From the NCBI GenBank assembly GCA_023511535.1, contig JAIMBK010000003.1, positions 25,471 to 89,470 of the forward strand: DNA of 64,000 nucleotides, in the 5' to 3' direction. Shown one piece after another: positions 20,784 to 25,737 of the stretch (position 1 is the stretch's first letter; every line of letters begins with the position of its first letter). Below the pieces are notes generated by a model. The model saw nothing but the letters and a program-made list of their open reading frames with translations. It ran no database searches and was not told the origin of the DNA. Origin of the DNA: Armatimonadota bacterium. Its GTDB lineage: Bacteria > Bacillota > Desulfotomaculia > Desulfotomaculales > Nap2-2B. The position numbers and the translations under genes were made by a program.

Positions 20784-21002
20784 ATGACGATCGGCGAAAA
20801 AATGCACCAGACCCTGGCGACCCTGGAAGGCGTAACGGCAAACCTGAAAAGCTTTGCCCTGGATACACAGGATAAAAATGCAAAGAAAATGTTTTCCGAT
20901 TATGCCAACCAGCTGGAAAATATTACCCGGGGGCTGCGCGGAAGGGTAAATTATGTCGAGCAGCAGGAGCCCCAATATAAGGTTTACGAACAGCAAACAT
21001 GA
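20784..21002 (+). CDS. DUF1657-family small spore-associated protein
   Basis: 72 aa. LATLEG...LKSFALDTQDKNAKKMF...EQQEPQYKVY matches my recollection of DUF1657. RBS AGGAGG. Confidence 0.65.
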   Translation: MTIGEKMHQTLATLEGVTANLKSFALDTQDKNAKKMFSDYANQLENITRGLRGRVNYVEQQEPQYKVYEQQT

Positions 21003-21036
21003 TAGCGCAAAACTTTTTTGCCCCAATAGATCACTA

Positions 21037-21070
21037 AAAGGGACAGGATAACCCGCCTGTCCCTTTTTTC
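21037..21070 (+). terminator. Intrinsic terminator after the DUF1657 gene
   Basis: AAAGGGACAGG / CCTGTCCCTTT stem, 8-nt loop, T-run. Confidence 0.8.
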
Positions 21071-21188
21071 CGATGGCCCAAGAAAAATTTCCTTAGCCCT
21101 CAGTCCTTCATCTGAATACGCCCGGCTTGAGGCACCGGCCGCTCGGGTAACCTATCCCTCGTTGCCATAAAATGGTATAAAATTTAAC

Positions 21189-21217
21189 TTGATTTATTCC
21201 TTCGCTTTAGATATAAT
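21189..21217 (+). promoter_or_regulatory. Sigma-A-type promoter of the T-box leader
   Basis: TTGATT (21189-21194), 17-nt spacer, TATAAT (21212-21217). Confidence 0.6.
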
Positions 21218-21224
21218 AACCCAT

Positions 21225-21537
21225 AACATAACGATGGTCTTCAAATCCCGTGAAGGAGGAAAGTAGGCCGGGCCCAGTTCTTCAGGGAGGAGGCGTCGGC
21301 GACTGGAAGCGCCTCTAGAACATGGCTGGTTGAAGTTCCCTCCGGAGGAGCAGGCTGAAAACCTTGAGCGGTAAAGTAGGCTGCGCCGGCTTCTTCCCCC
21401 GTTACCGGGAAGGGGGTATCGGAGTTCATTCCTGTACCTTTTTACCTGAGGGGTTTGCGCTTTTGGCGCAGGCAAGTAGGGTGGTACCGCGAAAAGATTG
21501 ATGGCTTTTCGTCCCTATGGATGAAAAGCCTTTTTTA
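21225..21537 (+). promoter_or_regulatory. T-box riboswitch 1 (complete: Stem I, Stem II, Stem III, T-box, terminator)
   Basis: Stem I base is GGAGG (21255-21259) / CCTCC (21339-21343), with AAAGTA S-turn motifs at 21260 and about 21373. Stem III is GCGCttttGGCGC. T-box core is AAGTAGGGTGGTACCGCG (21474-21491). Terminator is GGCTTTTC...GAAAAGCC plus T6 (21503-21536). Confidence 0.85.
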
Positions 21538-21539
21538 GT

Positions 21540-21665
21540 TGTCAGGAATGATTTTTCCCGTACCCTAAGCGAGGGGGCCGCCGGCGCTCGGCGGTCAACC
21601 AGGGTGGTACCGCGAAGAGCCCGCAGCCTTCGTCCCTGGAGGGATGGAGGCTGCGGGTTTTTTTC
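21540..21665 (+). promoter_or_regulatory. Second T-box antiterminator/terminator module (no recognisable Stem I)
   Basis: Hairpin GGCCGCCGgcgctCGGCGGTC, T-box core CCAGGGTGGTACCGCG (21599-21614), and terminator CCCGCAGCC...GGCTGCGGG plus T7 (21620-21664). Confidence 0.75.
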
Positions 21666-21730
21666 TATATTTATACCTTAATTTAATACCTTCACTTTAA
21701 ACAACTTATTACAGTTGGGAGGGCGCAAAG

Positions 21731-22789
21731 ATGGTTGTTGTCATGGAGCCCGGTGCATCACCGGAAACGATCGAAGTCGTCAGCGAGAGGCTGGCCGCCC
21801 AGGGTTTTCAACCGCATTTAATCCATGGCGTCAGCAGAATTGTCATCGCGGCCGTGGGGGAGCACCGCGCGGCGGATACTTCAGGCCTGGAAAACTTGCC
21901 CGGCGTGGAAAAGGTAGTCCCCATCATGAAGCCTTATAAGCTGGCCAGCAGGGAGGTCAGGGGGGAAGACAGCGTGGTGAAAGCCGGCCGGGTGGCGGTA
22001 GGCGGCGGGAGAAGCGTGGTCGTGATGGCCGGGCCGTGCGCCGTCGAAAGCCGCGAGCAGCTGTTCATGGCGGCCCGGGTGGTGAAGCGGGCCGGGGCGA
22101 CAATTTTGCGCGGCGGGGCCTTTAAACCGCGGACGTCTCCCTACAGCTTCCAGGGGTTAGCAGAAAAGGGATTACAGTTGCTGGCGGAGGCAGCCGCCTG
22201 GGCGGGTCTGGCCACGGTGAGCGAAGTAATTGACCAGGAAAGCCTGGACATGGCCAAAGATTACGTGGATATTCTGCAGATTGGGGCGCGCAACATGCAG
22301 AATTTCCGCCTTTTGCGGGCGGCCGGCCGCTCCGGCAAGCCCGTTCTGTTGAAGCGCGGCCTCTCGGCGACCATCGAGGAATGGCTCATGGCGGCGGAAT
22401 ATATCATGTCGGAAGGCAACGAGCAAGTTATCCTGTGCGAACGGGGCATCCGCACCTTTGAGCGCCTGACGCGTAATACCCTGGACTTGAGCGCCGTTTC
22501 TCTGGTGAAAATCTTAAGCCACCTGCCCGTGGTGGTCGATCCCAGCCATGCCACCGGAGACCGGCGCCTGATCGGCCCGATGTCCAAAGCAGCACTGGCG
22601 GCCGGGGCGGACGGCCTGCTCATCGAGGTGCACCCCGATCCTGCTCAGGCGCTGTGCGACGGCCAGCAGTCCCTTAACCCGGAACAATTTACCGCGCTGA
22701 TGCAGGACTTACAGGCAATAACGCTGGTTACCGGGCGAAAATTGGGCAGCCTTCCGGAGGCGGGCAAAGGAATAAAAGCTGCCGGCTAG
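21731..22789 (+). CDS. aroF: 3-deoxy-7-phosphoheptulonate (DAHP) synthase, class I-beta with N-terminal ferredoxin-like regulatory domain
   Basis: N-terminal roughly 70-aa regulatory domain (VVVMEPGAS...), then KDO8P/DAHPS-type barrel (AGPCAVES, GAFKPRTSPYSFQG, DPSH). Confidence 0.9.
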   Translation: MVVVMEPGASPETIEVVSERLAAQGFQPHLIHGVSRIVIAAVGEHRAADTSGLENLPGVEKVVPIMKPYKLASREVRGEDSVVKAGRVAVGGGRSVVVMAGPCAVESREQLFMAARVVKRAGATILRGGAFKPRTSPYSFQGLAEKGLQLLAEAAAWAGLATVSEVIDQESLDMAKDYVDILQIGARNMQNFRLLRAAGRSGKPVLLKRGLSATIEEWLMAAEYIMSEGNEQVILCERGIRTFERLTRNTLDLSAVSLVKILSHLPVVVDPSHATGDRRLIGPMSKAALAAGADGLLIEVHPDPAQALCDGQQSLNPEQFTALMQDLQAITLVTGRKLGSLPEAGKGIKAAG

Positions 22790-22969: not shown

Positions 22970-23848
22970 ATGACTAAAAAAATCGGTTATTTAGGACCGC
23001 CGGGAACTTTTTCGGAAATGGCCGCCAGGCTTTACCTAAATAGCGTGGATAAGGGTGAATTAATTCCCTTTCCTTCTCTGACGGATATTTTTATGGCCGT
23101 AGAAAAAGGAGGACTGACCGAAGGAATTTTGCCCCTGGAAAATTCTACCGAGGGATCGGTAAACCAGACGCTGGATTTACTGGCCCACCGCTTTGGGCAG
23201 ACGAAAATCAAGAACGAAATAATCTTGTCCGTGAACCACCATTTGCTGGCGCGGACGGGTGTTCCTTTCCATAAAGTGGTGCGGGTGGTCTCGCACCCCC
23301 AGGCGCTGGCGCAGTGCCGCTCCTTTCTGGAAAACTCCCTGCCGGGGGTGGAGGTACAGGAGGCTGCCAGCACTGCTGAAGCCGCTGCGCTCGTCGCCGC
23401 CATGCCGGCGCCCTGGGCGGCCATCGGAACCGCGCAGGTTGCCCGGTCTTGCGGCCTGGTGATTTTAGCGGAAAAGATCAACGATTGCTCCGCCAACGCC
23501 ACCCGTTTCATCGTGGTTGCCCGGGAGGACGCTCCCCAGGGGCCGGGGTGCAAGACTTCCATCATCTTTTCCGTGGAGGACCGGCCGGGGGCGCTGTGCG
23601 ACGTTCTTCTCGAATTTGCGGAAAGGAAAATCAACCTTACCCGGATTGAATCCCGCCCCACCCGGAACAGGCTGGGGGAATACCTGTTCTTTGTTGACTT
23701 CCAGGGGCATCGCCTGGACCAGGTCGTGCAGCAGGCCCTGGCGGCGGTTTCCCGGCGCGCGGTCAGCATGCGCGTGCTGGGCTCGTATCCGGCGGTTTCC
23801 GGAGAAGAACCGGAGGCCGGGCAGAAAAAATACCGGCGGGCCGGTTAA
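22970..23848 (+). CDS. pheA: Prephenate dehydratase (PDT + ACT domains)
   Basis: GYLGPPGTFSE N-terminus and TRIESRPTR ACT-domain motif. Confidence 0.9.
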   Translation: MTKKIGYLGPPGTFSEMAARLYLNSVDKGELIPFPSLTDIFMAVEKGGLTEGILPLENSTEGSVNQTLDLLAHRFGQTKIKNEIILSVNHHLLARTGVPFHKVVRVVSHPQALAQCRSFLENSLPGVEVQEAASTAEAAALVAAMPAPWAAIGTAQVARSCGLVILAEKINDCSANATRFIVVAREDAPQGPGCKTSIIFSVEDRPGALCDVLLEFAERKINLTRIESRPTRNRLGEYLFFVDFQGHRLDQVVQQALAAVSRRAVSMRVLGSYPAVSGEEPEAGQKKYRRAG

Positions 23849-24063: not shown

Positions 24064-25737
24064 CTACTCCGGCGCTTTCATTACCGCCCCCGTGCTGGCG
24101 GAAGTGACCAGGGCCGCGTAGCGGGCCAGGTAGCTTTTGCCGGTGACTTTCGGGGGCGGGGGCTGCCAGGCGCTGCGCCGGGCGGCCAGCTCTTCTTCGG
24201 AAAGCTTTACGTTCAGCTGGCGCCGGGGAATGTCGATTTCAATCAGGTCGCCTTCTTGCACCAGGGCCAGCGGCCCGCCTTCGGATGCTTCCGGGGAAAT
24301 GTGCCCGATGGAAGCCCCGCGGGTGCCGCCGGAGAAACGCCCGTCGGTGATCAGGGCGACTTTGCTGCCCAGGCCCATTCCCGTGATGGCCGAAGTGGGG
24401 CTGAGCATCTCCCGCATGCCGGGACCACCCCTGGGACCTTCATAACGGATGACCACTACGTCTTTTTCCCGGATTTTTCCGTCCATAATGGCGTTAAAAG
24501 CTTCTTCCTCGCTTTCGAACACCCGGGCCGGGCCGGTGTGCACGAGCATTTCCGGGACCACCGCCGACTGCTTGACCACCGCGCCGTCCGGCGCCAGGTT
24601 ACCCCTTAAGACGGCGATCCCTCCCTCGGGCGCGTACGGGTCGGTTAAGGGGCGAATGACCCGGGAATCACGCACGGCGGCCCGGCTGATGTTTTCGCCC
24701 AGCGTTTTGCCGGTGGCGGTCGGCGCGTCCAGCGCCAGCAGTCCCGCTTTGCCCAGTTGCTTGAGCACGGCGGAAATGCCGCCCGCCTGGTAGAGGTCAA
24801 ACAGCCGGTCTTCACCGGCGGGGCTCAGCTTGCAGATGTTCGGCACCCGGGCGCTGATTTCGTCAAAGGTTTCCAGCGCCAGGGGAACTTCCGCCTCGTA
24901 AGCGATGGCCAGCAGGTGGAGCACCGTGTTGGTGGAGCCGCCGATGGCCATATCCAGTGCGATGGCGTTGCGAAAAGCCGCCGGGGTAAGGATATCCCGG
25001 GGGCGCACGTTTCGCCGGACCATTTCCATGAGGCGCTCCCCGGCCAGCTTGGCCAGGGCTTTGCGCTGCCCGTAGGGGGCGGGAATGGTGCCGTTGCCGG
25101 GCAGGCCGATCCCCAAAGCCTCCGCCAGGCAGTTCATGGTGTTGGCCGTGAAAAGCCCGGCGCAGCTCCCGCAGCTGGGGCAGGCGCTCAGTTCCATTTC
25201 GGTCAGTTCTTCTTCGCTTATTGTTCCCTGGGCGAAAGTGCCCACCGCTTCAAAGACCCCCCGCACCAGGTCGACCTTCCTTTCCCGGTGCGTGCCCGTC
25301 AGCATGGGTCCGCCGCCCACGTACACGCTCGGAATGTTCAGGCGGGCGGCGGCCATCAACATACCGGGGACAATTTTATCACAGTTGCCGATCAGCACCA
25401 GCCCGTCCAGCTTGTGGGCGACCACCATGGTTTCGATGGAATCGGCAATCAGCTCCCGGCTGGCCAGGGGGTACTTCATGCCGTCGTGGTTCATGGCGAT
25501 CCCGTCGCAAATGCCGATAACCGGAAATTCCACCGGCGTACCGCCGCCGGCCGCCACGCCCAGCTTGGCCGCCTGGGCAAGCTCCCTTAAATGGATGTGC
25601 CCGGGAATGATTTCGTTGAAGGCGTTGACAATCCCGATCAGCGGTTTTTGCAGGTCTTCCGGCGTATAGCCCATGGCGTAAAAGAGCGACCGGTGCGGCG
25701 CCCTGGTGACGCCTCTGGTTACCTGTTCGCTAGCCAA
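24064..25737 (-). CDS. ilvD: Dihydroxy-acid dehydratase
   Basis: 557 aa with canonical IlvD motifs (CDGIAMNH..., SDGRFSGGT-like [11 protein letters not shown]). TTG start after GGGTGAG. Confidence 0.95.

Follow-up and report, generated by a model that had tools for sequence, protein, structure and literature searches.

A partially tandem T-box ahead of aroF and pheA: a complete phenylalanine T-box followed by a discriminator and terminator without a Stem I

Why should a leader with a single Stem I carry two T-box cores and two terminators, and what could the second of them sense without a decoding domain of its own? This question is raised by the leader of the aroF-pheA genes on contig JAIMBK010000003.1 (assembly GCA_023511535.1), from an uncultured Bacillota lineage, of which we analysed a stretch of 64 kb (contig positions 25,471 to 89,470, forward strand; hereafter the window, in whose numbering window coordinates are given). 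The leader is a partially tandem T-box: a complete Phe T-box (unit 1) is followed by a second discriminator and terminator without Stem I (unit 2). The latter is more than an antiterminator, being a whole T-box discriminator domain preceded by a conserved motif.

There are exactly two occurrences of the 13-mer GGGTGGTACCGCG in the window, both on the forward strand, at 21479-21491 and 21602-21614, the chance expectation being 0.07 and none of 100 shuffles giving two matches. These are exact copies of the T-box core GGGUGGUACCGCG, the second lying 123 nt downstream of the first. The original prediction, made from the letters of this stretch, had noticed both copies, and had begun the first at 21478 by counting in the preceding A. 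It had also assigned to each copy the conserved segment UUCGUCCCU, which is found 3' of the two cores at 21508-21516 and 21629-21637, and a GC-rich terminator with its own U-run, and these assignments hold. The parts of the two units are the following.

21241-21519, forward strand: unit 1, a complete transcriptional T-box leader (Rfam RF00230, full model 1-219, 96.7 bits, E 5.5e-20).
21336-21338, forward strand: specifier codon UUC (Phe), on the 3' side of the specifier loop GAAGUUC (21332-38).
21414-21439, forward strand: unit 1 linker hairpin GGGUAU-C-GGA / UCC-U-GUACCU, between the IIA/B pseudoknot and Stem III.
21448-21516, forward strand: unit 1 discriminator, with GAGGG at 21448-52, Stem III at 21453-73 and AA at 21474-75.
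21503-21536, forward strand: terminator 1, a 12-bp hairpin (21503-30) followed by UUUUUU (21531-36).
21537-21570, forward strand: unit 2 upstream element, a small hairpin (GGAA 21545-48/UUCC 21555-58), then the motif CCCGUACC (21557-64).
21571-21637, forward strand: unit 2, a Stem I-less discriminator, with GAGGG at 21571-75, an 8-bp Stem III (21576-83/21589-96) and AA at 21597-98.
21617-21664, forward strand: terminator 2, a 20-bp GC-rich hairpin (21617-60) with a U-run (U7) at 21658-64.

Unit 1 scores above the curated RF00230 cut-off of 93 bits, and its alignment spans the Stem I base, the S-turn, the distal platform, Stem II, IIA/B, Stem III and the antiterminator, in agreement with the original prediction, which had recognised Stems I, II and III in the first copy. 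In this alignment GGAG (21255-58) pairs with CUCC (21340-43) at the base of Stem I, the S-turn elements are AGUA (21262-65) and the GAA of the specifier loop, and the F-box CCGUUA (21399-21404) lies in IIA/B. The antiterminator consists of helix A1 (21478-81/21513-16), the bulge UGGUACC (21482-88) and helix A2 (21489-96/21505-12), and the UGGU of the bulge fits A73 of tRNA-Phe. The specifier, which had been left ambiguous between UUC and GUU, is settled by the Rfam register GAA-N-NNN-purine, which gives UUC (Phe) and not GUU. GAAGUUC is kept in ten orthologous DAHP-synthase leaders (among them loci L103, L017, L029, L031, L080, L089, L092, L098 and L025) and is replaced by GAAGUAC, with the Tyr codon UAC, in one Alicyclobacillus leader (L005), a pattern that supports this register. 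UUC also fits the regulated genes, a DAHP synthase and a prephenate dehydratase, and a C at the third codon position is a known preference of T-box specifiers (PMC7583486).

Two further observations concern Stem I. The base 3' of the specifier is C21339 (UUC-C) instead of the usual purine, and could pair with G21259; UUC-C is also found in L103, L121, L092, L080, L125 and L131, and the Syntrophomonas leaders retain A. A 24-nt direct repeat with 79% identity, AAAGTAGGCCGGGCCCAGTTCTTC at 21260-21283 and AAAGTAGGCTGCGCCGGCTTCTTC at 21373-21396, ties the S-turn side of Stem I to the S-turn side of Stem II.

Unit 2 is of a different kind. When 21500-21720 was searched alone against RF00230 it reached 28.8 bits, below the cut-off, and aligned with high posterior only at about 150-219 of the model, i.e., over Stem III, the T-box sequence and the antiterminator; Infernal aligned no Stem I for it, and the second core follows the U-run of terminator 1 after just 66 nt. 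A Stem I of its own, a specifier and an elbow-binding distal platform are all lacking, and the prediction of a second module without Stem I upstream of aroF-pheA thus passes the covariance-model search. What is present is the complete discriminator, defined as 5'-RRRxG-Stem III-AA-3', helix A1, a 7-nt bulge with UGGN at its 5' side and helix A2 closed by a G-U wobble (PMC7583486). Besides the purines, Stem III and AA listed above, unit 2 has helix A1 (21601-04, AGGG/21634-37), the bulge UGGUACC at 21605-11, in which UGGN is followed by ACC, and helix A2 (21612-17/21628-33) with the wobble G21612-U21633 at its base. That both bulges read UGGU had been seen from the start. On the strength of these parts, unit 2 is predicted to bind the 3' end of an uncharged tRNA. 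The discriminator is both necessary and sufficient for the sensing of aminoacylation, and an antiterminator without Stem III does not bind tRNA (PMC7583486). The description of the second copy as an antiterminator and terminator module needs extending, and the single hairpin that had been placed upstream of its core is joined there by the small hairpin at 21545-48/21555-58 and the motif at 21557-64.

This upstream motif, C-N-G-U-A-Y, is read as CCCGUACC in unit 2 and as CCUGUACC at 21431-38 in the linker hairpin of unit 1, in both cases 6-10 nt 5' of the RRRxG purines. Its C, G, U and A do not vary in any of the 18 related second units, a conservation as strict as that of the T-box core, and no published description of it was found in the T-box literature searched. 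Folding of 19 related unit 1 sequences predicts the linker hairpin in most of them, and G/A in its 5' strand covaries with C/U in its 3' strand (GGUA:UACC versus GAUA:UAUC). The upstream element of unit 2 is a partial copy of this hairpin, of uncertain structure, since the copy in the window folds weakly (-8.5 kcal/mol, z -0.1).

Some side observations on the motif and the cores may be recorded here. The motif forms the 3' strand of the hairpin GGGUAU-C-GGA...UCC-Y-GUACCU in unit 1, its 5' partner strand is often absent or altered in second units, and it is also present in single T-boxes of related lineages (L131, L147, L148, L164). A pairing of C-N-G-U-A with the T-box bulge (GUACC with GGUAC) was considered and is not supported, as the two leaders with a UGGCACC bulge (L069 and L071; n = 2) show no matching change. 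The T-box core is itself quasi-palindromic, and the two copies can pair with each other (21480-21490 with 21603-21613, 10 bp, -19.2 kcal/mol), as they do in the minimum-energy fold of the whole leader. Such pairing, inherent to any two T-box cores, could on this model silence core 2 whenever core 1 is free of tRNA.

Both terminators are far more stable than expected by chance, and they differ greatly in strength. Terminator 1 folds with -18.8 kcal/mol (z -4.45; 0 of 200 shuffles equally stable), and in unit 1 the terminator state lies 7 kcal/mol below the antiterminator state (-30.4 versus -23.4 kcal/mol). Terminator 2 reaches -42.8 kcal/mol (z -7.35), and its 3' strand can nucleate on 8-10 free GC-rich bases in the A2 loop. 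Because the terminator state of unit 2 (-56.0 kcal/mol) lies 31 kcal/mol below its antiterminator state (-25.2 kcal/mol), the folding energies predict that the default of unit 2 is OFF.

The second unit has been kept among relatives. A near-identical leader occurs in a Bacillota metagenome-assembled genome (MAG; L103) and, among 80 metagenomic AroF relatives, the three closest share the layout (L121, L122 and L124, with 86%, 70% and 66% identity), the second module and its terminator being retained in all four; their absence from close relatives would have spoken against the original prediction. In the 800 nt upstream, a single T-box core was found in about 20 of the more distant AroF relatives and none in the others. 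In L122 (1305-1316) and L124 (1241-1252) the bulge of the first unit reads UGGUAAC instead of UGGUACC, and the second unit is canonical. The extra unit is also found in DAHP-synthase leaders of Syntrophomonadaceae and Alicyclobacillus; one such Syntrophomonas contig, with a partially tandem aroF leader, also carries a 6S RNA gene (L017:234-409, reverse strand; RF00013, 84.4 bits).

Selection on unit 2 was followed in an alignment (A2) of 18 related second units of a Clostridia-type subfamily, which was used together with direct parsing since the MAFFT alignment of all loci is not structurally aligned in Stem III; terminator 2 differs in length among these sequences and does not align, and was folded sequence by sequence. 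The antiterminator-state structure is paired in 95.5% of the alignment cells, against 43-55% in slid controls, and changes on both sides are seen at 12 of the 18 pairs, including all 8 of Stem III. No shuffle out of 500 reached the observed pairing; the sequences are related, so that shuffles overstate significance and the slid controls and per-pair counts are the safer guide. The bulge UGGUACC is invariant except at N, which is C in two sequences, the AG-x-GG purine string and the AA vary little or not at all, and the G-U wobble of helix A2 is present in 18 of 18. Furthermore, the second units of the window, L103, L121 and L122 resemble each other (similarity 0.73-0.95) more than their own first units (0.59-0.64), which indicates a duplication that predates this clade, with both copies maintained since.

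Around the two units lie the following elements.

21189-21217, forward strand: promoter-like site TTGATT - 17 nt - TATAAT, by consensus match only (10 of 12 positions).
21717-21723, forward strand: Shine-Dalgarno sequence GGGAGGG of the DAHP synthase gene, outside both units and 53 nt past terminator 2.
21731-22789, forward strand: aroF-type DAHP synthase, the first regulated gene (PF00793, DAHP_synth_1, 1.4e-80; PF18152, ferredoxin-like domain, 6.8e-20).
22970-23848, forward strand: pheA-type prephenate dehydratase with an ACT domain, the second gene (PF00800, 1.3e-57; PF01842, 3.7e-13).

The promoter-like site is the only one within 20800-21900, with none between the units, so that nothing hints at a separate promoter for unit 2. 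No open reading frame of at least 80 aa lies on the forward strand between 21217 and 21731, and the window holds no tRNA gene. Within one leader, a second antiterminator and terminator without a specifier hairpin is therefore joined to a full T-box with no promoter or gene between them, which is what defines a partially tandem T-box. The leader is not a fully tandem one, in which each unit has its own Stem I and specifier; here the two cores lie 123 nt apart. Nor is it a translational T-box, a hairpin and U-run ending both units and the Shine-Dalgarno sequence lying outside both.

How widespread is this layout? We scanned 185,579 species-representative genomes for two T-box cores 69-129 nt apart with TTTT between them. 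At least 119 of them hold two cores 85-137 nt apart, a lower bound from a pattern that demands exact cores and a T-run and so biases both counts and spacing. The leaders among the matches listed include His, Phe, branched-chain and Asp ones, and the largest groups are the following.

Polar amino-acid ABC permease downstream: at least 41 arrays, in Lactobacillaceae and Enterococcus.
NhaC-type transporter downstream: at least 14 arrays, in the Bacillus cereus group.
DAHP synthase downstream: at least 12 arrays including the window, in Syntrophomonadaceae, Alicyclobacillus and Bacillota MAGs.

Smaller groups among the matches listed precede branched-chain ABC components, SSF and SNF transporters, aspartyl-tRNA synthetase, acetolactate synthase and carA. 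When 33 loci were scanned with Rfam, a full-length T-box ended at the first core in 29, which were all the leaders that reached the cut-off, and at none did the second unit reach it. A hairpin with a U-run, a feature not demanded by the search pattern, follows 115 of 122 second units, and the second terminator is on average stronger than the first (73 of 111; Wilcoxon p 5e-5).

Longer arrays exist as well, with three units (L101) and with four to five units in Lysinibacillus (L046, L056). In L046 (6896-7500, forward strand) the full T-box has a Phe specifier (GAA-U-UUC); behind it come three orphan units (units without Stem I) of about 90 nt that are almost identical to each other, and the array ends in a degenerate fifth core upstream of an SNF-family transporter. 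In L056 (3040-3830, reverse strand) four orphan units lie beyond a 280-nt insert downstream of the full T-box. These Lysinibacillus orphan units have no obvious Stem III. The Alicyclobacillus fastidiosus leader L005 (598-1161, reverse strand) has two full T-boxes (119.8 and 113.9 bits), the proximal one with the specifier UAC (Tyr), then an orphan unit before DAHP synthase, with two further T-boxes nearby on the opposite strand.

The bulges of these arrays bear on which tRNA end the second unit may meet. Outside the Lactobacillaceae and Enterococcus leaders the last base of UGGN is equal in both units or differs only as U/C. Mismatches of the types A/C, A/U and G/x are all found in Lactobacillaceae or Enterococcus leaders, and every mismatched leader whose alignment was inspected (10 shown) has the specifier CAC (His). 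In tRNA-His, C73 is paired with G-1; position 73 being thus occupied, UGGN is unconstrained in His leaders. The idea that mismatched units read different tRNAs was accordingly rejected, the mismatches being confined to these two groups and the inspected ones being His. From these comparisons, both units appear to read the same kind of acceptor end.

What, then, would unit 2 do? Judging from its parts, which also suggest its binding of tRNA, we consider it likely that the leader works as a serial AND gate, in which two checkpoints depend on uncharged tRNA and specificity comes from the decoding domain of unit 1 alone. Transcription would start at about 21224 and the polymerase would meet unit 1 first, whose Stem I would read uncharged tRNA-Phe at the anticodon and the elbow. 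The free ACCA end would pair with UGGU at 21482-85 and stabilise antiterminator 1, letting RNA polymerase pass terminator 1 and reach unit 2 about 110 nt later. Unit 2, which has nothing to read an anticodon with, could hold and inspect the 3' end of an uncharged tRNA by means of the purine string, Stem III, UGGU for A73 and the G-U wobble as a steric sieve; its strong terminator would be the default, and read-through would again need an uncharged A73-CCA end. Indeed, since every feature that senses the tRNA end is strictly conserved in the second units, it may be argued that their read-through needs an uncharged NCCA end. The operon would be expressed only after both checks are passed, and the net effect would be less basal read-through and a tighter and steeper response than that of a single T-box, at a cost of about 125 nt.

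As to where unit 2 would take its tRNA from, we lean slightly, with a confidence just short of even, to re-use of the tRNA held by Stem I. Its 3' end would be freed when the terminator-1 hairpin forms behind the polymerase, and the 7 kcal/mol by which terminator 1 exceeds antiterminator 1 in stability allow such a release once the polymerase has moved on. It is known that transcriptional T-boxes need the elbow contact of Stem I for fast capture, and that without it read-through in vivo is lost (PMC7583486). In the sequence examined, a biased sample, orphan units occur only behind full T-boxes and no orphan discriminator was seen standing alone. More tentatively still, and somewhat below an even chance, one decoding domain may serve several discriminators in turn, the still-tethered tRNA being handed on along up to three orphan units, as in Lysinibacillus. 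If this hand-over were true, the extra units would proofread read-through by stopping polymerases that had leaked past terminator 1 without a tRNA and passing those that carry one, and the dynamic range would widen without a higher starvation threshold.

The rival that survives best, which we regard as possible if rather doubtful, is that unit 2 binds a further uncharged tRNA, free in solution, by nothing but its acceptor end. It would then read just "uncharged, A73", with low affinity, raising the starvation threshold while unit 1 gives specificity. In favour of such free capture, a discriminator alone senses aminoacylation and has been crystallised with tRNA, and the complex of tRNA with an antiterminator of the unit 1 type has been described as locked and non-exchanging, so that its tRNA may be unavailable (PMC7583486). 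Furthermore, no conserved docking helix between the units was found in the window, and a UGGN in both units that fits one discriminator base is predicted by this model too. Against it, loss of the Stem I elbow contact in ordinary transcriptional T-boxes lowers the association rate 2- to 20-fold besides abolishing read-through in vivo (PMC7583486); weak and slow binding should rarely win over a very strong terminator 2 with an 8-10 nt GC toehold in the A2 loop; and orphan units are seen, in the biased sample mentioned, only behind a full T-box.

The serial gate fed by the tRNA of unit 1 has to be weighed against several points. The locked complex and the missing docking helix count against re-use, and so does a swap test in the window, in which unit 1 pairs better with its own linker strand (-20.4 kcal/mol) than with that of unit 2 (-15.7/-17.4 kcal/mol; z +0.3). 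A discriminator without Stem I should capture tRNA slowly and terminator 2 is extremely strong, which makes sufficient read-through hard to explain, and arrays with three to four orphan units are awkward for either route of supply. The distribution, moreover, comes from the biased scan described above, and a 2020 review gives the modes of action of partially tandem T-boxes as unknown (PMC7583486).

It is improbable that unit 2 is a remnant, either the 3' end left over as a former full tandem T-box decayed or the product of a slippage duplication, which has ceased to bind tRNA and acts as a constant attenuator or plain second terminator. Decay does seem to occur: in L125 (1363-1475; 59% AroF identity) a single T-box is followed by a terminator-like hairpin with CUUUCGUCCCU and without the T-box bulge, possibly a decayed second unit, the L046 array ends in its degenerate core, and the roughly 20 more distant AroF relatives manage with one T-box. 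However, bulge, purine string, AA and wobble would not be expected to stay (near-)invariant in 18 second units of a decaying element, nor Stem III to covary at 8 of 8 pairs; orthologous second units are conserved across a clade with just 70% AroF identity, and the operon would be almost shut down by a terminator of -43 kcal/mol with U7 that acted constantly.

Still less probable, as a general mechanism, is docking by strand exchange, in which the linker 3'-strand copy of unit 2 (CCCGUACCC) would displace that of unit 1 from GGGGGUAUCGG (21412-22) after read-through of terminator 1 and so place discriminator 2 beside the platform of Stem I, Stem II and pseudoknot. In L044, GGAGTTTAGTGATAA faces TTATCACTAAACTCC at 15 of 15 nt where the local stem has only 7 bp, and the His leaders L086, L059, L009, L035, L006 and L015 are similar, the unit 2 segment being complementary to both the 5' strand and the loop of the unit 1 hairpin, well beyond what duplication leads one to expect; of 91 arrays, 16 (mostly His leaders) show a significant extension at p<=0.05, where 4.6 would be expected, and 10 do so at p<=0.01. 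The effect is not general, as the median duplex energy equals that of shuffled controls, the unit 2 strand is a weaker partner than the own strand of unit 1 in 59 of the 91 arrays, the own strand wins in the window by the energies given above, and many second units have a local 5' strand of their own. With no overall effect in 91 arrays and none in the window, strand exchange was set aside as a general mechanism and kept as a lineage-restricted lead. The complementarity points to a helix that joins the two units over a long range in some lineages and that may physically dock the second discriminator in some His leaders. Complementarity of this kind is also listed for L079, L096 and L112 (His-transporter leaders) and for L054, with sequences that vary by genus.

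Least credible of all, and rejected, is that the hairpin at 21545-58 is an ultrashort Stem I with a hidden Phe codon, like those of actinobacterial translational T-boxes, for although its loop and 3' strand read UGAUUUUUCC, with both UUU and UUC, and several Phe leaders have U-rich loops there, UUC is absent at this place in the Phe leaders L017, L080 and L098, the string UUCCCGUAC also precedes non-Phe operons (a branched-chain binding protein in L053, an SSF transporter in L054), and neither a Stem II S-turn, nor a pseudoknot, nor an Infernal match adjoins it.

The layout itself is not new. Vitreschak et al. (RNA, 2008) are said to have recognised a structural class of T-boxes with duplicated terminator-antiterminator elements. 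"Partially tandem T-boxes" are listed in the 2020 review mentioned above (PMC7583486) with the same order of parts, a complete T-box and then a T-box sequence, antiterminator and terminator without specifier hairpin, upstream of an amino-acid gene. The leader in the window differs from these in nothing essential and is a further case, ahead of aroF-pheA and from an uncultured Bacillota lineage, of an already described and common layout; the rarity that the original prediction had implied for a second unit without Stem I does not stand, given that review and the at least 119 genomes. In more recent surveys the units of tandem T-boxes are taken to be complete (PMC12452182, PMC9413887), and no paper on the mechanism of the partially tandem ones was found in the literature searched. 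Nor was a statement found there that the extra unit is a full, covarying discriminator with purine string, G-U sieve and C-N-G-U-A motif. The present analysis contributes the list of parts, the evidence of covariation, the wide distribution, a resolved specifier, the explanation of UGGN variation by tRNA-His, and the upstream motif.

Three other systems help to place unit 2. Fully tandem T-boxes, as in trp, thrS and ilv-leu leaders of Bacillota, likewise place one operon behind a series of two or three terminators that depend on tRNA, an arrangement believed to make the response sharper and more digital (PMC12452182, PMC9413887), but each of their units has its own Stem I, specifier and tRNA, whereas unit 2 has no Stem I. 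The isolated discriminator construct of Li et al. 2019 (via PMC7583486) has the same parts as unit 2, which is a natural version of it; that construct was cut from a full T-box, whereas unit 2 naturally has no decoding domain, is coupled to a very strong terminator and has a conserved motif upstream. Finally, actinobacterial translational T-boxes with an ultrashort Stem I are reduced like unit 2 in lacking the long Stem I and the elbow platform, but they keep an apical-loop specifier and Stem II and sequester the Shine-Dalgarno sequence, whereas unit 2 has no specifier and ends in a terminator with U7.

For annotation, the consequence is that Rfam reports just the first unit, so that such leaders are scored as single T-boxes and the stronger second terminator is missed, which affects predicted expression or operon boundaries. 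For the biology of the family, partially tandem T-boxes are natural experiments on how a discriminator functions without a Stem I of its own. As an example, the leader in the window is defined, compact, conserved and clearly specific for Phe; its orphan unit keeps every feature that senses aminoacylation, and the at least 119 loci, including arrays with three to four units, provide a set on which the two models of tRNA supply can be tested.

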